Source: a virus
Lineage: Duplodnaviria; Caudoviricetes
Virus record (IMG/VR): IMGVR_UViG_3300021197_000662
Location: 1 to 59,826 of that record
Direction: 5' to 3' (one strand)
Length of the DNA stretch: 59,826 nucleotides
A model generated the notes under the pieces. That model saw nothing but the letters and a program-made list of their open reading frames with translations. It was not told the DNA's origin and ran no database searches. This document shows positions 237 through 15,734 of the stretch, one piece after another (position 1 is the stretch's first letter; each line of letters opens with the position of its first letter). The translations under genes were made by a program, and so were the position numbers.

Positions 237-2303
237 ATGAACATTATAGACATCCAAGACAGCCTCAAGGACTTCTCTGAAAACCAGCTTATCAAAGAGA
301 TGCAGATGCCTTCTGGCAACGCTCCGCAGTTTCTTGTACTTAGCGAAATACAGCGCCGCAAGCGCGTCAGAGACGACTTCTCTAAGCGTCAGGCAGCAGC
401 AGAGCCAACTGTGGCTGAAGAGGCTCTAGCGGCCTCTGGTGTGCCTGTGAGTGGTATAGCTGGTATGTCAGAAGCTATGGCTCCTCAAAGCGCTGCATCA
501 GAGGGCATAGGTACTATCATGCCTCAAGCCATGCGCCCGCAAGCGCCACCGGCTGCGCCTGTCCCAGATGATGTTGCTATGGGTATGAGGTCTGGTGGTC
601 TAATGTCATATGGCGAAGAACTTTCAAGCCGCATGTCTGACGACAAGATTGATCCATTCCTAGATGAGGTCGAGCAAATGGCAGATAGTCGTTTTGGCTT
701 GTCCTCAGGAACTGAACCTACATATCGAATGCACAGTGCTGGCCAAGCATCATTCGATTTCCAACCAAAAATCGATTTTGATAATAATTCATATACACGC
801 CCAGCTCACCCAATTATGCCGCATCCGGTAAAGGGTGGGCCAATAGGGCGAATAATGCCATACGCAATGAAATCCAACCAATTCAGAGGCCCAGTGCCAG
901 TTCAAAGGTATGATGAGGGCGGTTTAATTAAGGCTCAAAATGGTCTGCCTCTTGGCTTGCGTCAAAGAAACCCCGGAAACATAAGGCCCGGTGCTGGGTT
1001 TATAGGTGAGTCAGGTGCTGATGGGGGATACGCCACATTCGGATCTGATGATGAGGGCCTAAGAGCAATACAGAGACTACTGATGACATACGGAGACAAG
1101 TATGACATTAAGACTCTTAGACAGCTTGCTAATAGATATGCGCCGCCATCAGACAACAATCCTACTGGAAATTACATAGACTTCCTTTCAGACAAGACAG
1201 GCATAGGCCCTGACGATGAGATAAATCTTGCTGAAAGCGGCTCTTCTATTATTCCTGCCATAGTTGGCTTTGAGCAGGGGCAACAGCCATACAGTCAAGC
1301 TCAGATAGATAGGGCAATCAGGGCAGCAGGAACTGATGATCCAGCAAAGGTTTCTGAAATCCTTGGGAAGCCTTTGTCAGACGACATTCTTAATCAACGA
1401 CTAGATCAAGAGCCTGATATGCTTTCCAGCCTTATGGGGGCTAATGCAGCCACTAACGATGCTATAGACCCACAGCTTATTGATAGCGGAAGATCTTCAC
1501 CGGCAGTTGTTGCAGCGGAAAGGCTAAAGAAGCTGAGAGCCATGACCGCAGACAAGGAGTCAGGTAATCAAACAACGGGTGCTGATATGCCAGCAGGAGA
1601 GCTAACAGATTTGCGTCCTGACGCTCAATTTTTTGCCACATATCAGGAAGGAAAAAGAATCGCTGAAGAACAGGCGCAAAAGGCGACAACTGCTGATCCG
1701 GACTTTGAAGTTATGCCGGTTGTGGCCGAGGTCAAAGACGATCTAGCAAACGTAGGGATTGGCAGCACCAGCGCTGTAAACGCTGCTAAGGCAGCAAAGG
1801 CGGCAAAGGCGGCTGATCAACCAAAGCTCCCTGAGCCAAACGTAGACATAAGAAATACTGGCGATTCTGATGGGGCTATATCCCTTGTTGATGAGATAAA
1901 AGCCCTTCAGGCCAAAATGGAAAAGAACAGAGAGTCTGACAAATGGCTTGCTCTTGCTCAGGCTGGGATGGCCTTGATGTCATCTAAAGAGCCTACATTG
2001 CTTGGCGCTGCTGGCGAAGCTGGCATAGCTGGTCTTTCTGCAATGAGAGAGGCAAATCAGCGTTACGAAGAAGGTGTTATAGACTTGATTAATGCGAGAG
2101 CCAAGATCCAAGGAAAAAAGACAAATAAAATGGATCTTAGCGCCAGCAATGTGGTGTCTCTTATAAATCGGCTACAAGAAGACATAGCATCAGGTTTAGT
2201 CCAAGGAGAAGCTTTGAAAAAGGCTCAACTAGAAATAATTGGGTTGAAAAGGATGCTAGAAATACCAGAGCAAACATTCGGCGCTGATCAAGCTGCATCT
2301 TAA
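237..2303 (+). CDS. Internal virion protein with lysozyme-like (NPGNIR) domain
   Basis: Central RNPGNIR...YATF...GLRA...RYAPPSDNNPT..Y..F...G...D motif; located in the internal-protein module. Confidence 0.7.
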   Translation: MNIIDIQDSLKDFSENQLIKEMQMPSGNAPQFLVLSEIQRRKRVRDDFSKRQAAAEPTVAEEALAASGVPVSGIAGMSEAMAPQSAASEGIGTIMPQAMRPQAPPAAPVPDDVAMGMRSGGLMSYGEELSSRMSDDKIDPFLDEVEQMADSRFGLSSGTEPTYRMHSAGQASFDFQPKIDFDNNSYTRPAHPIMPHPVKGGPIGRIMPYAMKSNQFRGPVPVQRYDEGGLIKAQNGLPLGLRQRNPGNIRPGAGFIGESGADGGYATFGSDDEGLRAIQRLLMTYGDKYDIKTLRQLANRYAPPSDNNPTGNYIDFLSDKTGIGPDDEINLAESGSSIIPAIVGFEQGQQPYSQAQIDRAIRAAGTDDPAKVSEILGKPLSDDILNQRLDQEPDMLSSLMGANAATNDAIDPQLIDSGRSSPAVVAAERLKKLRAMTADKESGNQTTGADMPAGELTDLRPDAQFFATYQEGKRIAEEQAQKATTADPDFEVMPVVAEVKDDLANVGIGSTSAVNAAKAAKAAKAADQPKLPEPNVDIRNTGDSDGAISLVDEIKALQAKMEKNRESDKWLALAQAGMALMSSKEPTLLGAAGEAGIAGLSAMREANQRYEEGVIDLINARAKIQGKKTNKMDLSASNVVSLINRLQEDIASGLVQGEALKKAQLEIIGLKRMLEIPEQTFGADQAAS

Positions 2304-2315
2304 AGGAGATCATAG

Positions 2316-5300
2316 ATGGCAAACGTCTATGCGGATAGCAAGCGCACTGGAAAAAGTTACCTAGTTAGTATTGCTGGGGACAGCCCAACACCACAAGAGT
2401 TAGCTGACATTGAGCGGTATGTCGATGCCGTTGAAGGCTTTGGTGCGCCTACCACAGTTCAAGAGTCTCCAGATGAGGTGGGTAATCTCATTGACTTCAC
2501 TCAAGGCGCTGCATCAGGTCTTGCAAGAAGCATTGCCGATGTTCCCGGTGGATTGGCGTCTTTAACTGCTGCTGGTTTAAGAAAATTTGTACCCGGAGAT
2601 CAGGGCGAAGACAGCATAGAGTCTTTTGGTCAAGGCATAACAGATGCTGCTCGTACCGGCATTGATTATGTTATTGGGACTCCAGACGACAACATTGCTG
2701 GAAAAGCTGGACAGGCAATAGGCTCTATTGGGTCTTACTTCCTTGGTGGTGCTGGTGTTGTCAAGGGGCTGGGGGCTTTAGGCAAAAGCGCCTCTGCACA
2801 GAGAATAGGCGGTACGGCAGCAGCGGCTACAATGGGTGTGGGTCAGGGAGCGCAAAATCAAGTAGACAGAATAGCTAGATTTATAGAGCAGGGGGGCGAA
2901 CCTACAGAAAAAGACTTAGCCATCCTAACTGGTGGCCTTATTGGGGCGACTGAGGCGCTACCTATAAGCAAAGCTTTTGGCGTAATAGCAAACATTTTCA
3001 AGAAGGTCCCGAAAGACGTAAAAGAAAGTGCAGTTAAAAAATTAATACCAAGGCTAAAGAGTGCTGCTAAGGTTGGTGGGTATGAGGCCATTCAGGAAAG
3101 CGCGGCTGCTTGGCTTCAAGACCTAACGGAGCAAGGTCTTTATAATCCTGATTTAGATATCTCTATGAGCGCTTACAAAGATGACGCTATCTATGGTGGC
3201 GGGGCTGGCGCAACCTTTAACTTCCTTCTTGAGACTGTGGCTGGCAGAAGAGTCAAAAAGGTTTTAAAGGCTCAAACTCAACTGGTATTGGATCAAAGGG
3301 AGGAGGGTGAAGAAGTTAAACAACAAGTTGAGAGGGCAAAAGGCTCTCTTAATGAGCCTGAAGCCCCTGAAGCTATAGCTGGGTTGCTTACTGGGCCAAC
3401 AGAAGAAGGCGGAGTTAAAGACACTACTGATTTTACAGTAGGCGCTGATGGCGATGCGGTGAGAGAGCGTGACGAATTTGGAAGGCCCATAGATGAATCT
3501 ACTCCTTTTGAAGATGATTTAAAGAACAATCCAAAAGAGGCAACAAAGGCCTTTAATGAAAACTTAAAGGACTTAGGACTTAATCAGGACCAAGAGCAGC
3601 AAGCCTTAGCAGAAGCCGCAAGGGAAACACAGCTTGGCGACCAGCCAGTAGATCTTTCGGAGCTTTCTGAGGGAGAGTCTGCCACTCTCAGGCAATCTCG
3701 CGTTAGAGCTGGCGTTCAGGACGTAGACGGTCCAACTAGCTTAGATGAAATCAAAGATGTACTTGGATTACCCACATACAACAGAATAGGTGCAAGGCAA
3801 AAGCCTAGAACTTGGCAGAAGGCTCTTTCTGAGGAAGAGAAATCTTTAGCCGCTGAAGACGCTGCTATTAAAGAAAAGGTTATAGACAACAAAGACGCTG
3901 CAAAAGTTTTGGTTGAGTCTGGAGAGGTCTTAAACAAAGACGGAACAGTTAACAGATTAAAGCTGCAAAAGGCTTTATCTCTTACCGTCCAGCAGGCTCA
4001 AGCGTTAATCAATAACATGAAAACAGAAGGTGTTGTTGAGCCTGTAAGCAGAACAAAGGTTAGGCCAGCTAATCCACCTACGCCCCCTACGGAGCAGCAG
4101 GAAGCCGAGAGAAGTGCAGAGACTGTCCTTAATGAGCTTACCCGAATGCGGCAAGAGCAGCAGGAGAGAATAAACGCAGCCAAGGAAGTCGGAGTCGGTA
4201 GTCAGGCTGAACAGCTTGCTATTGAGGATGCACAGAGAGCTATTGACGAGCTTGATGCAAAGATCAAAGTTCAGGAAGTAAAGCTCTCTGATGTTAGAGC
4301 GTCTGCTCCACCCAGACCATCAGCCTCTCAGGCAAGAAATAACCAAGCCCTTGTTGTTCAAGAAGAAGCTGAAGGGGCAAAGCCAACAGAAGAATACAAA
4401 AGAAGAATAAACGCTGTAGCCAATGCTTTGCGTAAGTATTTGTTTGGCCTAGGGCTGAAAGATGTTGATTTAGTAAGTCAGAATGTAATTGACTACTCAG
4501 AGACTATTAACCCTGATGGGTCGAAAGACATAAATATTACTGAGGGGTCAGAGCAGGCAGGGGAAAACGCTCGCAGGATTATCACCCTTGCCATGGAGAT
4601 ATATGATCCAAACTTGAGCGAGGCTGAGCTTGAGCAAAGACTGGCTGGCGTCCTAAACCATGAAATAATACACGCTATGAAGGGCCTAGGTCTATTCACT
4701 GATGCTGAATGGGCTAGCCTTGTTAAGGCTGCCGAGAAAAGAAAATACGCAAAGACTATTAATGGCAGAACTATTGATAGAGAATACACCTTCTTGGATA
4801 GAGCGGAGTTTATGTATCCAGAAGACACTCCTGAGTCTCAGCAAGAAGAAGCTGTAGCTGAGATGTTTAGAGCATATGCAGAGGGCCGCATCAAAGTAGG
4901 CGGCAAGCCCAAAGGCTTGTTCAGTCGCATGGTCAGGTTTATCAAGTCAATATTTAACGCACATGCCGATGCTGGGTTCACTAGCGCAGCAGAGATATTT
5001 GATGGCATCAAGTCTGGAAAGGTTGGCCGTAGACAGCGTAACATAAGAGCCGCATCAATTGCTCCTGCTGGCGCTAAATACTCAACTGCTGGGGTTCGTG
5101 GCACGAACATTCGTGCTGGCTTCTTAATTCCTGAGCGAGGAAATGTAGAGCGTATACAGCAGTCATTCAAAGATGTGACAAAGCGCATACCTCAGCTTAC
5201 TGAGGCTGCACAAAAATTGTCCGATGGTACAATTTTATATGATGAGTATGATCGCTTAGTAAATGAGTTTAAGCCAATCATTCCATATGAAACAGTTCCT

Positions 5301-8300
5301 GCTCCAGCTACAAATGAAGAAATGGAGGGAGCTTTAAAATCAAATCAAATCCCTAAACTAAACATGCTTTCAAAGGATATGGATGGTCTTGTGACTGGCA
5401 TGAGACTAGATGTAAGCGCCTATAGGGATTACGGAGTTTGGGTCCCAACTATACATCATGGGAAAAGAAGCAACGTTACAAATAAGGACGGAAAAAACCT
5501 AGCTAATTTAACTATCTCTCATCAATCAACAGGGATAATAGAGAACGCAACATTTGAAGCACCGCAGGGCAGGGCATTAGCTGTTGCTAAGGGAGCGCAG
5601 AAGGGTCCGTTTTCTACAATAGAGGGGACTTACAAACACGCCACGCCAGATCAATCTTTTGCTATCGCACAGCAAATGATGAACGACCCAACAGTTGTGC
5701 AAGTTGGCTTTGATCCTGAGCGTCATTCATATTTTTATGACCGCATGACAACACAGCCTGTAATTAGTGCTGATCTGGTTGTTCAAGTCGGACCGCTAGT
5801 TCTTGCTAAAAACCCTGTGTTTGGAAACAAGTCAGAGTTTAAATTTTCTGTACGCACTATAAGAAACATGCCGACCAACCTAATCGGCCCAATACCAATA
5901 GTGCATGACGTAAAGACCCAGTACATGAACTCTGTTGGCCTTCCGAACAGAAGGCAGGGTGAGTATGTAGAGGTTGATCTTCCGTTGGCAACTCGTATAG
6001 CCGCCGCCTTTGAAGAAGCAGAAGACAGGCCTAACGATCCAGATGTGCAAATTGCTTATCAAGCCATGGCAAACGAGACTATGGCTCAGTGGCAGTTTAT
6101 AAAAAACACCGGCCTAGATGTAGAGTTTATTAAGGAAGACATGGACAACCCTTACCCCAACGGGTCTAGGGATGTCCTTATGGACATAAGAGACAACAAT
6201 CATATGTGGGTCTTCCCCACTGATACTGGTTTTGGTCAGGCATCAATAACTGCTGAGGATGAGGCTGCCAATCCTCTTCTTGCCAAGGCAGATGAAACTG
6301 TTGATGGCATAGACATGCGTATCAATGATGTGTTCCGCATAGTGCATGATTACTTTGGTCATGGGCTAGAGGGAGCAACGTTTACAGCGCGTGGTGAAGA
6401 AAACGCTTGGCAATCTCATGTGAGGATGTATAGTCCTACAGCGGCCAAGGCTATGACTACGGAGACAAGAGGACAAAACTCTTGGGTTAACTTTGGCCCA
6501 GTTGGGGAGCAAAATAGAGAAAACCCTGCATCTACAGTGTACGCAGAACAGAAGATAACCCTTCTTCCTGATTTTGCTGTTAACGAAGGTGTAGCACCAG
6601 ACTTGGAGTCTACAAATGAGCAAGAAAGAATTAATCGAAGCATCAAAGGATCTCGTATCTCAGGAGATGCAAGGTCAGACAGAGCAAGAGTCGATAGAGT
6701 CGCAACAGGATCGGGCAATGTCAGAGGCGAGATTCCAGAGGGCCAAGAAGCTGACTTTGGAACGCCGAAGCCAACAGTTGATGAAAACGGCTTAACTCGC
6801 CTAATACATTACTCTCCTATAGTGGGGCTGGACACCATCAGCCCAAGAGAGCAATTAACAAATAACAGGATGCGTGGAGATGAGCGGGAACGTAAAGTAA
6901 AGTTCCCTAACATCTATCAAGCTAGGTCTTACTTTGGCATGAATGTCGGTGAGGCAAATGGGTACAATCAAGAGGCCACTGTAGGCAATAACGTATACGA
7001 AACTCAAGTACCAGTTGATTCATTATACGACTACGACAAAGACCCAGAAGGCTTTATTACCAAAGCGGCTAATTCCGTTGATGACAACATCATGGAAAGA
7101 ACTTGGAACAAGCCCAAGCAATTCATAACAACAACAGCCGAAAAATCCATAAAGGATGCTGGTTACTCTGGTTACTGGAGTAACTCAAGAATGGGTATGG
7201 TTGCGGCCATGTTCAATGATACTGTTGTGAAGCCAGAAGGCTCTATAGAAAAGCCCGTAAAAAGATCTGCAAGAACAGCAACCATAGATGTACCTAATGT
7301 AAATAACGTTGACGGCGCTAGGATTAGCCAAAGGTTCCCTAAAGGCGCTTCAGCGACAGAAGACCCTATAGAAGAAATACTTCAATTGGGCGCTAATGAT
7401 ATAATTAACAATCCTAAACTGCTTGCCAGAACCGCCGAGATTGTACGAGGGTACAATATAATAACTGAAGAGGAGGCAGCGTCACTTGGCGACAAGGAGT
7501 TGGTCGAAACCCTTATAGAGAGACTTTCTTCTAACCTTGAGTTTGTTTATGACAACGTCCCAGAGGCAACAAGAGAAAGATCAAAGCTTTGGTATGTCGG
7601 CGCTAACAGAATAGCAAATGAAAACGCCTTAAAGTACAGCGAAGAGTCTGGCTCCCCGGTATCTATTGAGCAAGCCGCTGCTGTAATGGCTGCTCTAAGT
7701 CCACAGAAGGACTGGTATCAGAATGTCTCTCTAGGCGAGCGGCTTATAGACATATACAAAACCAAAATGGATTTTGTGCCGACCCCTGAGATGGAAGCAA
7801 CTGCTCGAAGAATATTTCCAAAAGATGTGCATCAGCCAATGCTTGATATTATATTCATGCAGGGGAGAAACATGCCCCTTTCTGAGTACGCCGATGCGCC
7901 CCTTCTGCAAGCTATGTTTATACGATTGTATGATGAAACATATAATGACCGTGGATACTACATCGTTTCTCCTGATGGACAGAACATTGGCTGGGCCAGA
8001 AATGCAAATGGGTCTAGGTCAAGGGTTGCTTGGGGTTCTAATAAAGAGATAACAAAGGCAGTTATGGCTTTAACCAATCCTGAATCAATCTCTTCGGAAA
8101 TGGGCGACAGGCATAAGGTTAGAAACTTCTTTAATAATATAGCTGCTCCATTCTCTCAGGACGGAGATGTAACATCGGATACTCACGCTGTAGCCGCTGC
8201 TCACCTAAAGCCATTGTCTGGCTCGTCTACAGAAGTTCATCACAACTTCGGCACATCACCGGTAGCTTCAAAAAGAGATGAGAACTGGAGAGGGGCCGTT

Positions 8301-11300
8301 TCAAACTCAGCTCCTCTCGGAGTTAAGGGTACATACGCCCTTTATGTTGAGGCACACAGAAGAGCAGCAGCCAGAAGAAATGTTCTCCCTAGAGAGATGC
8401 AGTCTATAACATGGGAGGCTGTAAGGGGATTATTTACCCCAGCGTTTAAGCAAAACAAAAACAATGTTAGGATGATTGACCGTATCTGGAATGACTTCAG
8501 GTCTGGTCAGAAAACAATAGAGGAAGTAAGAGAGGAAGTTTTAAATGAAGCAGGTGACAAAGGAAGATTTCGTCCACCAAGCTGGGAAGGACCCGATAGT
8601 GGAAGCATTAGCAGCCCTGAACTTGCCGTTGACCCGACAGAACTATCTGGAAATGTCGTATCCAGAAGCAATCCCATCGATTACAGCGGAGATGGAGTCG
8701 GAACTACCGGAGGAACTCCTAATGCCGAAACAAAATATAGTAAGCGGTCGGTAAGATACGTCCCATCTTTAGAGCAAGGAACAGGACCACTCATATCAAA
8801 CAACGCCATGCTGAAGGCGTCAGAGCAATCTTACGATAGGATAACGTACAACAACGTAGCTAGAGTTCTTGGAAAACTTTACTCAAAGGTGTTTGACGAA
8901 AAGAAGGCACGGGCTTGGGAAGCTAAGACAGAACGCTTTGTGACTAAGTTTCAGGATGCAATGCTTCCTGTGGGCAAGCTTATGGACGAACTAAGGTCTG
9001 ATGGGCTTAGCATTCCAGACGCAATGGATGTCTACATGAGGGAAGAGCTTGCACAGGGCCTCATGGGCGCTAGGCTAGACGAAAACAAAGCTAATTTATA
9101 CGAGCCATTAACAGACACTATAAAGCAGATAGAAGTTGATCAGGCAAAGATTGATCAACTTGCAAACGTGTCTAGATTTTTTGAGGACGCCAGAGGGGCT
9201 TATGATCCAAAGCTAGCCATTGCTGATGCTTATCTTTATGCACTCCACGCGAAAGAAAGAAATGCATATGTTCTGGCTAGAAACAAAACAGGGCTTGGGT
9301 CAGGAATGTCAGACGGAGAGGCTGATGCGATACTAGCGTGGGTAGACTCTCTGAATGTCCAAAGCAAAAACACCTTAAACGGCATAAAAAATACCGTAGT
9401 ACAAATTGTACAGAACACAAATGACGTAAGAAGAGAAGGCGGCCTTATGGCTGAGGAGTACAGCTTCTCAAACTATGTGCCTTTGCGAGGCATACTTGAC
9501 CCAGAAGAAGACCTTTCAGAGGATCTGGATAGCGTTCCTAGGATGGGAAGAAAGAAAAGAGACAACCTTTACGGAGGCACGGCTTATCAAGACCCAAGAA
9601 TAACAACGGGTAGGGGAACTGAGTACGCTGAAGACATTATAGCAAATGTCATGGTTCAGAACTCTAGGTCTATTGTAGCGGCTGAGAGAAACAAAGTCGG
9701 TCAGGCATTCTTAAATATTATTGATCCAAAGATCATGGACCCTAATGCCGAGTATATAATGGAAAAGGATAACAGGGACGGCATAGCAATTATAGTCGAT
9801 AAAGTAACTCCTGACATGCAAGAAAATGTTCTAAAGGTAAAGGTCAATGGCAGACAAGAGCCTTACAATATTCTTATAAGAGACAACAGGGTCGCCAGAG
9901 CCATGAGAGGCGCTGGTGGGGATGGAATCGAAAGAGGCGGCGCTGTAGTCAGATATATGGCAAAGTTCAACAGATACCTCTCAAACATTAACACAACTTG
10001 GAACCCAGAGTTTGCCATCACAAACTTTTTCAGGGACTTGGAGACTGCTGGGGTAAACATAGGTCAGTACGATCAAGAGGGTATTAGCAGAGAAGTAATG
10101 AAGAACGCCGCCCCTGCCGTAAAGGGAATCCTCGCTGTCACCAGAGAAGGAGGGTTTGAGGGGTATGACAAAACAAACTGGACAGACGTATTTAATGACT
10201 TTGTTTCTGCGGGCGGAAAGAACTCTACCAACCAAGTTGATAGCGTTAAAGATCAAATGGAAAGCATCAAAAAGGTTCTTGATGAGGTTTCCAATAACAG
10301 CATAAAGGGTAAGCTGGGACTTTCTAGGAATGGCTTTCTTTATAAAATTGGCGGGTTCTTAGACGCTTACAACACGGCTGTTGAAAATGGAGTCCGAGTT
10401 GCAACATATCATGCCCTGTTAAAGAGAGGGTTTAGCAAAGACAGAGCAGCTCAAGCAGCCAGAAACGTAACAGTAAACTTTGCAAAGCAGGGGGAAGAAA
10501 AAGCCCTTATGAATGCTTTGTTCCTTTTCTACAATGCATCAGTGCAAGGATCTATGGCCCTGTTTAACGCTGGCATAAGGTCATCAAAGGTACGCAATAT
10601 ATGGGGGGGGATGATTATTGCTGGCGTCCTATTGGATCAATTTGCCGCTGCGGCTTCAGGAGACGAAGACGAGGACGGTGTAAGCGACTACGATGAGCTA
10701 GGTCAGTACACTCTTGAGCATAACATAATATTCCCTACATTTGGGCTTGTGGAACAAAAGTTTTTAAAAATACCTTTAGGGTACGGGCTTAACACGGCAG
10801 TCAATCTAGGTCGATCCATGAGCAGGGTTCAGCGCGGAGAGTACACCCCTGCTGAAGGCTTTAACTCTACATTTGGCACATTAGCAGAATCTCTTAACCC
10901 TCTAGGGGACACTAATTGGGAAAATGCATTAATACCTACTGTAGGCGATCCGTTTATAAGCTTAGCTGTAAACAAAGACTACAAAGGCGACCCTATCGTA
11001 AAGGAAGCATCTCCCTTTGGTGTCCAGAAGCCAGACAGCCAACTGTACTGGTCTAACACAAGCGCACTATTCAAGGGTATAGCTAGGGCTGTCAATTCTG
11101 GCACAGGCGGCACAGAGATAACCCCCGGAATGATAGACATTTCGCCAGAAACGATAGACTTCTGGGCGCAATACTTTACTGGCGCAGCAGGAGCATTTGC
11201 TCTTAGGACTGCTGAGTCTCCCTCAAAGACAATTGAGTCATTCAGAGGCGACCTTGAAGGTGATCTAATAAGGGAAATACCATTTGCCAGAAAGCTATTC

Positions 11301-11636
11301 ACCTCTCCCTCTTCAAGAGAGGACACAGGCCAGTTTATCGAAAACAGGGATAAGGTTCTAAGGGCGGCAAAGGAGCTTCAGTTCTCTTTGCAGTCTCAAG
11401 ACCCAGAGAGAGCCTCTGAGATAAGAAAAGAGTACGCCAACGAGTTAAAGATTTATGGTCAGCTAAAGGCCATGAACAACTACAGAAACAAGCTTGTCAG
11501 AAACAAGAACAAAGTTCAGTCAAGCAAGACAATACCAGAAGAGCAAAAGAAGGCTATCATAAGAAGCCTAAGAGACAAGATACAGGTAATAGAAAAAAGA
11601 GCCGCAATCATTATGAGGAATGCTGGCGTAAGGTAA
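2316..11636 (+). CDS. Giant polyvalent internal virion protein (3106 aa): metallopeptidase-like, ADP-ribosyltransferase (ART)-like, HhH-glycosylase-like and LPD38-like domains
   Basis: SD AAGGAG; HEIIH...EEAVAE (4659); HDYFGH...GEENAW (6345); LIHYS...RSYFG...DAGYSGY (~6800-7200); ALSPQ...KVRNF...DTHA...QSITW (~7690-8420); AARNVTVNF...FLFYNASVQG LPD38-like C-terminus; short K(Y/F/R)S linkers between domains. Confidence 0.85.
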   Translation: MANVYADSKRTGKSYLVSIAGDSPTPQELADIERYVDAVEGFGAPTTVQESPDEVGNLIDFTQGAASGLARSIADVPGGLASLTAAGLRKFVPGDQGEDSIESFGQGITDAARTGIDYVIGTPDDNIAGKAGQAIGSIGSYFLGGAGVVKGLGALGKSASAQRIGGTAAAATMGVGQGAQNQVDRIARFIEQGGEPTEKDLAILTGGLIGATEALPISKAFGVIANIFKKVPKDVKESAVKKLIPRLKSAAKVGGYEAIQESAAAWLQDLTEQGLYNPDLDISMSAYKDDAIYGGGAGATFNFLLETVAGRRVKKVLKAQTQLVLDQREEGEEVKQQVERAKGSLNEPEAPEAIAGLLTGPTEEGGVKDTTDFTVGADGDAVRERDEFGRPIDESTPFEDDLKNNPKEATKAFNENLKDLGLNQDQEQQALAEAARETQLGDQPVDLSELSEGESATLRQSRVRAGVQDVDGPTSLDEIKDVLGLPTYNRIGARQKPRTWQKALSEEEKSLAAEDAAIKEKVIDNKDAAKVLVESGEVLNKDGTVNRLKLQKALSLTVQQAQALINNMKTEGVVEPVSRTKVRPANPPTPPTEQQEAERSAETVLNELTRMRQEQQERINAAKEVGVGSQAEQLAIEDAQRAIDELDAKIKVQEVKLSDVRASAPPRPSASQARNNQALVVQEEAEGAKPTEEYKRRINAVANALRKYLFGLGLKDVDLVSQNVIDYSETINPDGSKDINITEGSEQAGENARRIITLAMEIYDPNLSEAELEQRLAGVLNHEIIHAMKGLGLFTDAEWASLVKAAEKRKYAKTINGRTIDREYTFLDRAEFMYPEDTPESQQEEAVAEMFRAYAEGRIKVGGKPKGLFSRMVRFIKSIFNAHADAGFTSAAEIFDGIKSGKVGRRQRNIRAASIAPAGAKYSTAGVRGTNIRAGFLIPERGNVERIQQSFKDVTKRIPQLTEAAQKLSDGTILYDEYDRLVNEFKPIIPYETVPAPATNEEMEGALKSNQIPKLNMLSKDMDGLVTGMRLDVSAYRDYGVWVPTIHHGKRSNVTNKDGKNLANLTISHQSTGIIENATFEAPQGRALAVAKGAQKGPFSTIEGTYKHATPDQSFAIAQQMMNDPTVVQVGFDPERHSYFYDRMTTQPVISADLVVQVGPLVLAKNPVFGNKSEFKFSVRTIRNMPTNLIGPIPIVHDVKTQYMNSVGLPNRRQGEYVEVDLPLATRIAAAFEEAEDRPNDPDVQIAYQAMANETMAQWQFIKNTGLDVEFIKEDMDNPYPNGSRDVLMDIRDNNHMWVFPTDTGFGQASITAEDEAANPLLAKADETVDGIDMRINDVFRIVHDYFGHGLEGATFTARGEENAWQSHVRMYSPTAAKAMTTETRGQNSWVNFGPVGEQNRENPASTVYAEQKITLLPDFAVNEGVAPDLESTNEQERINRSIKGSRISGDARSDRARVDRVATGSGNVRGEIPEGQEADFGTPKPTVDENGLTRLIHYSPIVGLDTISPREQLTNNRMRGDERERKVKFPNIYQARSYFGMNVGEANGYNQEATVGNNVYETQVPVDSLYDYDKDPEGFITKAANSVDDNIMERTWNKPKQFITTTAEKSIKDAGYSGYWSNSRMGMVAAMFNDTVVKPEGSIEKPVKRSARTATIDVPNVNNVDGARISQRFPKGASATEDPIEEILQLGANDIINNPKLLARTAEIVRGYNIITEEEAASLGDKELVETLIERLSSNLEFVYDNVPEATRERSKLWYVGANRIANENALKYSEESGSPVSIEQAAAVMAALSPQKDWYQNVSLGERLIDIYKTKMDFVPTPEMEATARRIFPKDVHQPMLDIIFMQGRNMPLSEYADAPLLQAMFIRLYDETYNDRGYYIVSPDGQNIGWARNANGSRSRVAWGSNKEITKAVMALTNPESISSEMGDRHKVRNFFNNIAAPFSQDGDVTSDTHAVAAAHLKPLSGSSTEVHHNFGTSPVASKRDENWRGAVSNSAPLGVKGTYALYVEAHRRAAARRNVLPREMQSITWEAVRGLFTPAFKQNKNNVRMIDRIWNDFRSGQKTIEEVREEVLNEAGDKGRFRPPSWEGPDSGSISSPELAVDPTELSGNVVSRSNPIDYSGDGVGTTGGTPNAETKYSKRSVRYVPSLEQGTGPLISNNAMLKASEQSYDRITYNNVARVLGKLYSKVFDEKKARAWEAKTERFVTKFQDAMLPVGKLMDELRSDGLSIPDAMDVYMREELAQGLMGARLDENKANLYEPLTDTIKQIEVDQAKIDQLANVSRFFEDARGAYDPKLAIADAYLYALHAKERNAYVLARNKTGLGSGMSDGEADAILAWVDSLNVQSKNTLNGIKNTVVQIVQNTNDVRREGGLMAEEYSFSNYVPLRGILDPEEDLSEDLDSVPRMGRKKRDNLYGGTAYQDPRITTGRGTEYAEDIIANVMVQNSRSIVAAERNKVGQAFLNIIDPKIMDPNAEYIMEKDNRDGIAIIVDKVTPDMQENVLKVKVNGRQEPYNILIRDNRVARAMRGAGGDGIERGGAVVRYMAKFNRYLSNINTTWNPEFAITNFFRDLETAGVNIGQYDQEGISREVMKNAAPAVKGILAVTREGGFEGYDKTNWTDVFNDFVSAGGKNSTNQVDSVKDQMESIKKVLDEVSNNSIKGKLGLSRNGFLYKIGGFLDAYNTAVENGVRVATYHALLKRGFSKDRAAQAARNVTVNFAKQGEEKALMNALFLFYNASVQGSMALFNAGIRSSKVRNIWGGMIIAGVLLDQFAAAASGDEDEDGVSDYDELGQYTLEHNIIFPTFGLVEQKFLKIPLGYGLNTAVNLGRSMSRVQRGEYTPAEGFNSTFGTLAESLNPLGDTNWENALIPTVGDPFISLAVNKDYKGDPIVKEASPFGVQKPDSQLYWSNTSALFKGIARAVNSGTGGTEITPGMIDISPETIDFWAQYFTGAAGAFALRTAESPSKTIESFRGDLEGDLIREIPFARKLFTSPSSREDTGQFIENRDKVLRAAKELQFSLQSQDPERASEIRKEYANELKIYGQLKAMNNYRNKLVRNKNKVQSSKTIPEEQKKAIIRSLRDKIQVIEKRAAIIMRNAGVR
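6616..6795 (+). CDS. Putative nested (+1 frame) 59-aa protein inside the giant gene
   Basis: GGAG-7nt-ATG; MSKKELIEASKDLVSQEMQGQTEQESIESQQDRAMSEARFQRAKKLTLERRSQQLMKTA*; host frame here is an R/G/S-rich linker. Confidence 0.55.
   Translation: MSKKELIEASKDLVSQEMQGQTEQESIESQQDRAMSEARFQRAKKLTLERRSQQLMKTA
8545..8754 (+). CDS. Putative nested (+1 frame) 69-aa acidic protein inside the giant gene
   Basis: GAGG-9nt-ATG; DPIVEALAALNLPLTRQNYLEMSYPEAIPSITAEMESELPEEL looks like a folded helical protein; host frame is a G/S/P-rich linker. Confidence 0.7.
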   Translation: MKQVTKEDFVHQAGKDPIVEALAALNLPLTRQNYLEMSYPEAIPSITAEMESELPEELLMPKQNIVSGR

Positions 11637-13829: not shown

Positions 13830-14122
13830 TAGAATGGGACCTCATCATTGGTTAGGGTTTTGCTTTGAGACTGTCCGTTAGCCTTTCTGGCGTAGTGTGT
13901 GTTGCCAACCAAAGACAGGAATGTTGATCCGTTCTTCTGGCTTACACGCTTCCAGCCAGCTAGATCTAGCTTAGGCTTTGGGTTTCCCTCTGCCATCTGA
14001 GCAACAAGGTCATTCACAACCTCGTCAGACAGCTCTATGTGGCCTGTATAATCAGGCTGAGTGGCTTTCTCTTTCCTGTTGTTGGTAAAAAGAACTCCTG
14101 ATGGTGGGTAATCGTTACTCAT
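13829..14122 (-). CDS. Putative single-stranded DNA-binding protein (DUF736-like)
   Basis: LFTNNRKEKATQPDYTG...LAGW motif; acidic DEVPF tail; adjacent to Sak. Confidence 0.65.
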   Translation of the reverse strand: MSNDYPPSGVLFTNNRKEKATQPDYTGHIELSDEVVNDLVAQMAEGNPKPKLDLAGWKRVSQKNGSTFLSLVGNTHYARKANGQSQSKTLTNDEVPF

Positions 14123-14796
14123 GCCGCTTTCTCCTTATTGGCTTTTGACTCTGGGAATTGATGGCTGTGCTTAGTAAATTTAGCCACAACCGCTTTGTAA
14201 AGAACTTTGTCTCCTGACTCTAAAACATTCAAAGCATCCTTGTTCTCTCCCCAGAACGCAGTTAGCTTTTGATATGTATCGCACTCGCTGATAAATGAGT
14301 TAAACACCTCAGCCATTACAAAATAACTTGCCTCTTCCTTAACCTCTCCAGAAGAGGACGTTATCTTTACCTTCTCCTCTTTCTTTTCTTCGATCACACC
14401 CTCTGGCAAATCCTCGCCAGCATAGATGTAGTGACCCAACCCATGAAACGCCAAACACTTAGTCAGACACCTCTGTAAAGCTGTGTTTACTTGAAAGCTA
14501 TCTGGTTGCGACACAGCCTTGTTTGCGTGATTGAGAACAGGCATAACCTCTGTTTGACTCTCATCTTCTATATCAACGGTTACTGAAACAAATGCATACC
14601 CTGCCGGATCAATCATGTAGGGCAAGGTGCAATCATTATTTGCACTAGAGTACAAATTTTTCGTGAACGTAGTCTTGGGATAATGCTTCTTCACAATCCC
14701 CCACGCCCATGCCCAACTCAGATATGTCAGGCCATTCTTTTTTTCGATGTGATCAGACACATCAACCTTAGATAAGGTTTCCCATACGCTACTCAT
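14119..14796 (-). CDS. sak: Sak/Rad52-like single-strand annealing protein
   Basis: EKKNGLTYLSWAWAW...NTALQRCLTKCLAFHGLGHYIYAGEDLP; start reassigned to MSSVW after AGGAG. Confidence 0.85.
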   Translation of the reverse strand: MSSVWETLSKVDVSDHIEKKNGLTYLSWAWAWGIVKKHYPKTTFTKNLYSSANNDCTLPYMIDPAGYAFVSVTVDIEDESQTEVMPVLNHANKAVSQPDSFQVNTALQRCLTKCLAFHGLGHYIYAGEDLPEGVIEEKKEEKVKITSSSGEVKEEASYFVMAEVFNSFISECDTYQKLTAFWGENKDALNVLESGDKVLYKAVVAKFTKHSHQFPESKANKEKAA

Positions 14797-14797
14797 A

Positions 14798-15682
14798 TTA
14801 ACCTTCTCCTCTGTACTGTGAACAAAAATCGGAAACTCCACAATAGTCACCGATACACCTTACCGCCTCTCCGGCTCGGTATTCTATTTCTAAAACATAT
14901 TCATTATCACGCGCTTTATGAGCCTGAGAAAATTCATTCGCTAATTGTTCAGTCTCAAAAACTCTCAAGGCTCTCTTGTTTCCCTTCTTTTTTACTGCCC
15001 AAGAATCGCTGCGCTTCCAAATTTCATCATTAGAACAAAAGGGGAACTCGCCCTCAGCGTCATACATCTTCTGCGCTTCTTGATGAATGCCAACTCTTTC
15101 ATTGATGTAATTGATGCGCGTCTCCTCGTCCCATATTGGGATGTCAACCAGCACAACAGGCGCACTAGGGTAGTCTGGCTTGTACTTTGATTCCCTCTTG
15201 TTCCAGTCCCTCAGTATCGCGCATATCTGCAAAGAGTTGACCTTTTTACCCTTATTTTTTTGTACGAGGTAGGCGTACATATTAAGTTGCCGCTCCCACT
15301 CAATCTTCCCATAGATCACAGACCAAACGCTTGTGACCTTGTAATCAGTTATCTGAATGTTTGCCCGATCAACAACCTGATGATCAACAGCCCCTGACAA
15401 GACCCATCCGTTAACCTCTGCAAACAACCTTTCCTCAAGTACGACATCATCAGATGGCTTGGTACTCTCAAGGACATGGTGAACAGCAGTGCCAAACAAA
15501 GGCCATATCATGTCTACTGCATCAACAGTTCTATCGTTGGCGTGATGATCCCTCATCAGCCTCACCCTTGGGCTGTCTATAAGGGTAGTGACAGATATGT
15601 CAGCATTTCCCTTGCTATATTTGTCATTTCTGGCAAAATCAACAAAGGATTTGGGCAATTTGTGATTATTGGTAATTTCCAT
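14798..15682 (-). CDS. PD-(D/E)XK (Cas4-like) exonuclease
   Basis: GTAVH...E...LSGAVD...ITDYKVT...QLNMY with C-terminal cysteines; start after GGAGG. Confidence 0.8.
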   Translation of the reverse strand: MEITNNHKLPKSFVDFARNDKYSKGNADISVTTLIDSPRVRLMRDHHANDRTVDAVDMIWPLFGTAVHHVLESTKPSDDVVLEERLFAEVNGWVLSGAVDHQVVDRANIQITDYKVTSVWSVIYGKIEWERQLNMYAYLVQKNKGKKVNSLQICAILRDWNKRESKYKPDYPSAPVVLVDIPIWDEETRINYINERVGIHQEAQKMYDAEGEFPFCSNDEIWKRSDSWAVKKKGNKRALRVFETEQLANEFSQAHKARDNEYVLEIEYRAGEAVRCIGDYCGVSDFCSQYRGEG

Positions 15683-15705
15683 GTTGTCCCTCCCTGTGAG
15701 TTTTT

Positions 15706-15734
15706 GTTGTATCAAAAGCGTTTATTAATGTCAA
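15706..15734 (-). promoter_or_regulatory. Sigma70-like promoter of the recombination operon
   Basis: TTGACA-17 nt-TACAAC on the minus strand. Confidence 0.6.

Follow-up and report, generated by a model that had tools for sequence, protein, structure and literature searches.

The 59.8-kb tailed-phage record IMGVR_UViG_3300021197_000662 (CheckV completeness, 100%), all 59,826 nucleotides (nt) of which are called the window here, carries a small gene that lies entirely inside another, much larger one and is read in a different frame. The nested gene occupies positions 8545 to 8754 on the plus strand, encodes 69 amino acids (aa) from ATG to TAA and is placed in the +1 frame of a giant polyvalent-type open reading frame (ORF) of 3106 aa (2316 to 11636, +). 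It is under purifying selection, has start signals of its own and is linked in every gene arrangement seen to a DUF7178-like domain, which in the window is encoded by the giant ORF just upstream. We consider it close to certain that the 69-aa ORF is a real gene. Structure prediction assigns the domain a fold resembling the HhH-GPD glycosylases and makes the small protein, with good confidence, its binding partner. There is about an even chance that the small protein is an inhibitor of the domain.

An earlier note, made on the letters of the window and a list of its ORFs, had reported this ORF with a GAGG motif 9 nt ahead of its ATG and an acidic product, and all of this was as described. The protein has an isoelectric point (pI) of 4.63, with 11 Asp and Glu residues versus 6 Lys and Arg residues. 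The Shine-Dalgarno (SD)-like sequence GAGGAA at 8532 to 8537 (+) falls within the main-frame codons GAG GAA, which specify two Glu residues; its GAGG core at 8532 to 8535 is followed by a spacing of 9 nt to the ATG at 8545. The length of 69 codons is not beyond chance, since a 92-aa ORF is present in the +1 frame of the same giant ORF (7774 to 8052, +). That longer ORF is interrupted by stops in seven of seven relatives, and its own-frame ratio of nonsynonymous to synonymous differences (pN/pS) was 0.71 to 1.98, compared with 0.12 to 0.55 for the main frame. It is a chance ORF and served as the negative control. What lifts the 69-aa ORF beyond chance is conservation, that is, purifying selection, the size of its family and a start codon and SD sequence that are kept, rather than length.

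Selection was evaluated by pairwise comparison within three clades whose main frame stays open across the small ORF, yielding 21 pairs. Small-frame pN/pS ranged from 0.09 to 0.56 in all 21. Over the same DNA, main-frame pN/pS was 0.61 to 3.4 in 20 pairs and undefined in one (pS = 0). Differences at small-frame codon positions 1, 2, and 3 numbered 32, 26, and 55 in the first clade, 11, 22, and 36 in the second, and 71, 183, and 218 in the third. The substitution peak is therefore at small-frame codon position 3, which is main-frame codon position 1. Because of these pN/pS values and this codon-position pattern, which the control ORF reverses, the small frame has to be regarded as constrained and the main frame as an unconstrained passenger. 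Across the small gene the main frame reads GPDSGSISSPELAVDPTELSGNVVSRSNPIDYSGDGVGTTGGTPNAETKYSKRS, a linker rich in G, S, P, and T that spans 8589 to 8765 (+; polyprotein aa 2092 to 2150) and whose sequence is merely kept open. The expectation of the earlier note, namely a G/S/P linker overlapped by a frame that is the constrained one, was thus borne out.

Start signals were counted in 125 same-strand loci with non-identical small-domain DNA, in which the small frame is open by construction of the matches. A start candidate was present in all 125 and was ATG in 120. An SD-like 4-mer lay 4 to 15 nt upstream of the candidate in 118/125 loci versus 175/2810 control ATGs (6.2%), a count that is somewhat generous because the best of a few candidate starts per locus was used. 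For the 5-mers AGGAG, GGAGG, and GAGGA the corresponding numbers were 71/125 and 34/2810. The third frame was interrupted by stops in 124 of the 125 loci, and the main frame was open across the small-domain region in 84.

The gene belongs to a previously undescribed, widespread family of phage proteins of about 60 aa with the motif G..D(P)..L....P.TRENYL.LAY....PE...AE.E..LPE. In an alignment and profile of 32 members (A1), T30 is invariant, G14, D16, P28, Y34, A48, E49, E51, and P55 are nearly invariant, and the median net charge is -5. When 1.84 billion representative proteins were searched with this profile, 1923 matched at E<=1e-3 and 414 at E<=1e-10, most of them 55 to 75 aa long; similar "LP.TRENY...LPE" proteins, which the earlier note had placed in uncultured phages, are abundant there indeed. 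A 90%-identity collection contained 101 matching clusters that had already been called as genes; every name given to them is "hypothetical protein," and no Pfam domain was found on any of them. Pfam and PHROGs searches with the small protein and five relatives returned no family, the sole rows (E>=0.029) being taken as noise. Among deposited phages, neither tblastn with the 69-aa protein nor blastn with positions 7300 to 9800 gave a match. A weak nested copy (E 1.6e-6) was seen at about 3678 to 3850 of Rhodobacteraceae phage LS06-2018-MD07 (OP947163.1), within a coding sequence of ~9.3 kb annotated as "methyltransferase"; no separate coding sequence is annotated there.

Modeled alone, the 69-aa protein forms four short helices at a predicted local distance difference test score (pLDDT) of 68.6. 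Searches with this model were unproductive in the PDB with Foldseek (nothing usable; best E 4.4) and in a wide VIA search (no usable fold match; best Z 3.5). Foldseek against BFVD returned one unnamed viral protein of 77 aa (E 0.014), probably a member of the family, and the ESM Atlas returned one unnamed viral cluster with a score of 0.76, which is below the useful range.

Several database proteins depart from the simple form. P0130 and P0133 have two tandem copies of the small domain, while P0249, P0259, P0234, and P0218 have charged, low-complexity C-terminal extensions. No viral loci were found with P0130 and P0249 as queries, and the small protein of locus L047 retrieved its own close relatives and nothing else. 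Scoring of 7999 candidates for longer fused forms gave no match, which is weak evidence. P0179 (966 aa, 11 "stretches") consists of repetitive sequence and was judged a spurious family match. In P0165, of 190 aa, the end of the domain and the small protein are fused in one frame. This fusion is unsupported: a DNA locus with 97% identity, L086, has the usual +1 offset, so that P0165 probably reflects an indel or an assembly error.

Linkage to the upstream domain was assessed in two samples selected in different ways. A profile of the window ORF and its two closest relatives, compared with six-frame translations, matched in 84 of 85 fetched loci, and all 84 matches were at the end of a homologue of the upstream domain, in frame +1. 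Including 80 further metagenome loci, the small gene was found at +1 in 161 of 165 domain-selected loci. The four exceptions are L051, which is without the upstream part; L120, where the gene is 459 nt further on; L104, which is cut off after the first 22 profile positions; and L113, with no small gene in the stretch available. After a closer look, by which L120 and L104 were added, linkage stood at 163 of 164 loci. The second, independent sample was obtained by scanning viral contigs for the DNA pattern of the small-protein motif alone, not via the domain. Of its 120 loci, 119 were true family matches; 5 were too near the locus end to be judged, and the remaining 114 assessable loci all adjoin a DUF7178-like domain. 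The earlier note had staked its idea on the existence of homologues linked to the domain, and this is what both samples contain.

The position of the small gene relative to the domain is not uniform. Among the 114 motif-selected loci it is directly downstream at +1 in 93, in frame after a stop in 2, at +2 in 2, and after a 459-nt insert in 1; in the other 16 the two genes converge, the small one being on the opposite strand. In L190, which is of the last type, a stand-alone domain gene of 507 aa ends at 2475 and the opposite-strand small gene ends at 2482. In this locus (2147 to 2482, +; 2475 to 3998, -) and 15 similar ones from a G+C-rich lineage, the 3' ends overlap by 8 nt, and the small gene stands behind a helicase-like gene. 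Among the 125 same-strand loci, 41 have a main-frame stop within the small gene, giving a free-standing gene with an overlap of ~40 nt; the main frame stops no more than 200 nt past the small gene in 27 and after more than 200 nt in 12, and it is open to the locus end in 42. The small ORF runs off the locus in the other 3. L047, an example of the free-standing form, has a 754-aa gene, a 60-aa small gene, and then a separate third gene. L226 and L120 contain ~150 extra residues ("...YHGTNQADLKKLKSGITPDDEFKGVSLTNDPEEALLFAQ...") between the glycosylase-like domain and the stop, with the small gene after this insert.

On a FastTree tree of 117 domain sequences, the arrangement states changed at least 11 times while the small gene was kept, and for the "open" state no fewer than 5 changes are required when just the starred branches are counted. 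The small gene has been kept while its surroundings were repeatedly rebuilt, and in the window the neighboring genes have fused across it.

The partner in these arrangements is encoded in the window at 7302 to 8588 (+), corresponding to polyprotein aa 1663 to 2091, and the last ~15 codons overlap the start of the small gene. An AlphaFold2 model of this segment reached a pLDDT of 91.9 and a predicted template modeling score of 0.90. When it was compared with 48161 chains by VIA-align, the top 20 rows all belonged to the HhH-GPD glycosylase superfamily (Z 8.7 to 5.2), and the next, unrelated row followed at 4.7. The best rows were the QNG1/DUF2419 structure 7u07 (Z 8.7, 218 aligned residues, root mean square deviation 4.3) and Thermotoga maritima OGG (3n0u; Z 8.7, 182 aligned), with 1xqp at Z 7.6; AGOG, Endo III, MagIII, OGG1, MutY, AlkA-like proteins, ROS1, and NTHL1 were also among the 20. 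On the model, the domain would therefore have the two-lobed helical fold shared with Endo III, OGG, AlkA, and MutY, and the case for it lies in the consistency of the list, not in the height of Z. Foldseek gave weak rows only, with AGOG (probability 0.63) as the one coherent match. The earlier note had called the domain glycosylase-like, and predicted fold agrees with it.

In HhH-GPD proteins, a helix-hairpin-helix is followed by a Gly/Pro-rich loop and then the catalytic Asp; bifunctional members also carry a Lys on the second helix. An alignment of 32 relatives of the domain (A2) has 56 invariant columns, including G268, K272, and D293. K272 is the second residue of a modeled helix (271 to 281), and D293 caps a helix (294 to 301) after a G/P-containing loop. 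We presume K272 and D293 to be the catalytic Lys and Asp, a mapping made by the general motif layout and not by alignment. In the window, the presumed hairpin, Gly/Pro loop, and Asp segment extends from 8103 to 8180 (+), where G268, K272, and D293 are G1930 (8103 to 8105), K1934 (8115 to 8117), and D1955 (8178 to 8180) of the polyprotein. The term "DUF7178" was not found in the papers searched, and a search on HhH-GPD in bacteriophage virions gave, by titles and the starts of abstracts, no paper on a DUF7178-like domain. In Roseobacter phage CRP-738 (MZ892992.1), a DUF7178-like domain is part of gp40 (835 aa), whose gene is flanked by those for portal and coat and so occupies a head-module position. 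The 6.3 kb examined there contained no detectable homologue of the small gene; an unrelated 71-aa gene, gp41, precedes gp40.

Cofolding of the domain (A2) with the small protein (A1), a check that the earlier note had proposed, predicted a confident complex. The three runs gave ipSAE values of 0.91, 0.92, and 0.91, compared with 0.01 for the best of three controls. In calibration, this ipSAE mark was attained by 58/80 solved complexes versus 2/110 mismatched pairs, counts that are rough here because own alignments were used. The runs share at least 87% of contacts, and the pLDDT of the partner was at least 82. On the domain side, the confident interface includes P134, Q135, R208, G245, S246, E249, R270, K272, V273, D293, T294, G307, V312, N315, and F316; on the other side it includes G14, D16, and the motif residues A48-E49-x-E51. 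Both presumed catalytic residues, K272 and D293, are within the predicted contacts (270 to 273 and 293 to 294).

These findings suggest the following role. The small protein would be made from its own SD sequence and ATG inside the last codons of the glycosylase-like domain. Acidic and helical, it would bind the HhH-GPD-glycosylase-like (DUF7178-type) domain encoded just upstream and cover the surface with the presumed catalytic Lys and Asp. It would thereby act as a dedicated, cis-encoded inhibitor, a "safety catch" or immunity protein, of the phage's own virion-associated effector domain. Bound during assembly, it would silence the domain in the cell that makes the phage and in which phage DNA lies exposed; on delivery of the effector into a new host it would be lost or displaced. 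The inhibition, its timing, and the glycosylase activity are what we infer, while binding and its site are predicted. Adjacency in every arrangement, even in a different transcription unit, together with the predicted clamp, is the pattern of an enzyme with a dedicated inhibitor or immunity protein. The immediate adjacency across lineages that marks enzyme-immunity pairs was found in 114/114 motif-selected and 163/164 domain-selected loci. Our confidence in the explanation as a whole is evenly poised because the inhibitor role is its weakest step. The earlier note had guessed at an acidic inhibitor that mimics DNA. Its inhibitor half gains from the predicted placement over the presumed catalytic residues, and inhibition itself stays conjectural; for its mimic half, the fold searches gave no likeness of the small protein to known DNA mimics.

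A number of observations weigh against an inhibitor of a glycosylase. Fold is the one basis on which the domain is assigned to the glycosylases, and among helical proteins a Z of 8.7 is no more than middling. At E<=0.001 the window yielded no match to the glycosylase model PF00730, which scored above its cut-off in 14 of 14 control genomes; hhalign of the domain with Escherichia coli Nth gave a probability of 0.2, and phmmer and hmmsearch against PDB chains found no sequence match. The Lys and Asp mapping leans on the general motif layout. For the interface, positions conserved in at least 90% of sequences are not enriched on the domain side (14/53 versus 81/376 elsewhere; Fisher P = 0.26), and on the small-protein side they amount to 5/42 versus 4/27. 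Of the nine residues that are best conserved in the small protein, four (P28, T30, Y34, and P55) are outside the confident interface and probably serve the protein's own fold. The complex is a cofold model, so that binding, activity, and inhibition are predicted or inferred, and the Foldseek (PDB and BFVD) and wide VIA searches with the small-protein model (pLDDT 68.6) revealed no fold likeness to known inhibitors. Finally, CRP-738, phage zth2-2, and L113 have distant DUF7178-like domains with no detectable small gene nearby, and the pair is therefore not universal.

Another reading accepts the binding and differs in its purpose. The small protein could be a required subunit, a lid, a folding helper, or a packaging chaperone, for instance one that completes a substrate pocket or escorts the domain into the capsid. 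The same linkage and cofold evidence applies to it, and the large, mostly variable interface (53 domain residues) is what would be expected of a permanent subunit. QNG1/DUF2419, tied for the closest structural match, acts on a nucleotide rather than duplex DNA, and if the substrate here were likewise a small nucleotide, covering the cleft might be the work of a lid or subunit. However, distant domains with no detectable small gene nearby speak against a structural part that the domain cannot spare. The hairpin and the presumed catalytic Lys and Asp, where substrate should sit, are among the predicted contacts, and the convergent arrangement puts the small gene in a different transcription unit from the domain. 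We regard a subunit or chaperone as a serious but improbable alternative to the inhibitor.

Still less probable is a free-acting acidic DNA mimic directed against host proteins, such as restriction enzymes or host glycosylases, whose place next to the domain would be genomic hitch-hiking. Small size and acidity would suit such a mimic, as would a phage protein class that part of the text of PMC5512222 ties to host conflict, and the phage DNA mimics Ugi and p56 are of similar size in the parts of the literature covered. Against this, the small gene adjoins the domain in 114/114 loci and five arrangements, one of them on the opposite strand, which would be difficult to account for if the two had no tie in function, and the cofold with the phage domain (0.91 versus 0.01 for controls) points to a partner within the phage.

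Programmed +1 ribosomal frameshifting, by which the small peptide would be appended to the upstream domain, could be read from the +1 relation in 161/165 domain-selected loci and from the in-frame fusion in P0165. The 16 loci on the opposite strand, the 2 after an in-frame stop, the 2 at +2, and the 1 after a 459-nt insert speak against such a mechanism; the ATG and SD sequence are conserved, the ATG comes immediately after a stop codon in many loci, and L086, 97% identical to P0165, has the usual +1 offset. The opposite-strand and stop-separated forms exclude frameshifting as a general route to the small protein, and we consider it highly improbable altogether. A chance open frame without a product, to which the unremarkable 69 codons and the 92-aa chance ORF in the same giant gene might point, is the least probable reading of all, being contradicted by conservation, selection, start signals, and the contrasting behavior of that control ORF.

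The proposed pair resembles several known systems, each in part. Ugi of phages PBS1 and PBS2 and p56 of phage phi29 are described, in parts of the texts of PMC3711442 and PMC3794593, as very small acidic proteins that block uracil-DNA glycosylase (UDG) by occupying its DNA-binding site. Like them, the window protein is a small acidic phage protein (69 aa, pI 4.63), and prediction places it over the presumed catalytic surface of a glycosylase-like domain. The targets differ: Ugi and p56 act on the family-1 UDG of the host, a protein of another fold, whereas the small protein is predicted to act on an HhH-GPD-like domain of the phage itself. The searches gave no likeness in sequence or fold between them and the small protein, and no Ugi, p56, or SAUGI row appeared in the Foldseek (PDB and BFVD) or wide VIA searches with the model of pLDDT 68.6.

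In colicin DNases with their Im proteins, barnase and barstar, and polymorphic toxins with their immunity proteins, a small, often acidic inhibitor is encoded directly after the enzyme, often overlapping it, and protects the producer. A gene for a small acidic protein, directly after and overlapping a presumed enzyme domain, is likewise present in the window. The differences are that the enzyme is a module of a phage polyvalent protein and not a secreted bacteriocin, that its toxicity is putative, and that in this phage the ORF for the enzyme encloses the whole partner gene in a second frame. A complete small gene inside a larger one is known from lambda, in which Rz1 lies in the +1 frame inside Rz with its own start signals; both frames are functional, and the products cooperate. 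The window gene, too, is complete, lies in the +1 frame of a larger gene, and has its own start signals. Unlike in Rz/Rz1, what the outer frame encodes across the overlap is a linker free of constraint, and the nesting has been gained or lost repeatedly (no fewer than 11 changes of state on the tree). Nothing found in sequence or fold would make the small protein a member of the Ugi/p56, immunity, or Rz1 families. The upstream domain resembles HhH-GPD glycosylases and the queuine-salvage enzyme QNG1/DUF2419 in fold; it differs from HhH-GPD glycosylases in having no sequence-level match and in its size of ~430 aa, about twice that of Endo III.

The giant ORF itself matches LPD38 (E 2.3e-35, 122.9 bits) and DUF7178 (PF23802; E 1.2e-22, 81.2 bits, above the curated cut-off of 27) in Pfam, and PHROGs 14770, 616, and 10691, of unknown function, give long matches to its C-terminal module. 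On these grounds it is a polyvalent-type protein, as it combines an LPD marker with many unrelated domains (LPD38, DUF7178, an HExxH motif, and further PHROG modules). LPD38 is listed, in the part of Iyer et al. 2017 concerned (PMC5512222), as restricted to phage-type polyvalent proteins, and a giant multidomain phage protein with LPD38 resembles those described there. The words "glycosylase" and "overlapping" do not occur in the main text of PMC5512222, and a partner gene nested in a linker differs from the polyvalent theme as described in that main text.

Within the giant protein, the C-terminal module extends from 8829 to 11591 (+), with LPD38 at 10686 to 11231. The closest nested relatives, L002 and L003, have ~780 nt more main-frame sequence than the window between the small gene and this module, so the length of the linker region varies greatly. 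At 4659 to 4673 (+; aa 782 to 786) the giant protein has a zincin-like HExxH motif, HEIIH, with no Pfam match. It might mark a processing protease that could cleave the polyprotein in its linkers, for instance in the linker that spans the nested gene. A 688-aa ORF at 237 to 2303 (+) directly precedes the giant gene; its residues 210 to 372 match PHROGs annotated as "endolysin" and "tail length tape measure protein," which fits a place of the giant gene at the end of the virion module. Other genes of the window include a terminase, a portal, a capsid protein, a primase-helicase, and a Sak/PD-(D/E)XK recombination pair. In the latter, at 14119 to 15715 (-), a Sak single-strand-annealing protein adjoins a PD-(D/E)XK nuclease, forming a recombination module.

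The finding reveals a real, widespread protein family that standard annotation misses whenever the gene is nested, phage LS06-2018-MD07 being an example. DUF7178, a domain of unknown function, gains two testable assignments: an HhH-GPD-glycosylase-like fold and a dedicated partner. The various arrangements offer a natural series for gene fusion across an intervening gene, as the small gene may be overlapped in part, be nested either in a 3' tail or in a fusion linker, stand apart, or be inverted. Should the small protein prove to be an inhibitor, it would represent a kind of glycosylase inhibitor not known before, and polyvalent phage effectors would be seen to be able to carry their own safety catch. 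We advance only tentatively, and as one joint claim, that the family is the first known protein inhibitor of the HhH-GPD-type glycosylase fold and that the small gene is kept so firmly that flanking genes can fuse across it in another frame without its loss. It would then be a cis-encoded active-site plug, keeping a virion-delivered DNA- or nucleotide-glycosylase effector harmless until injection.

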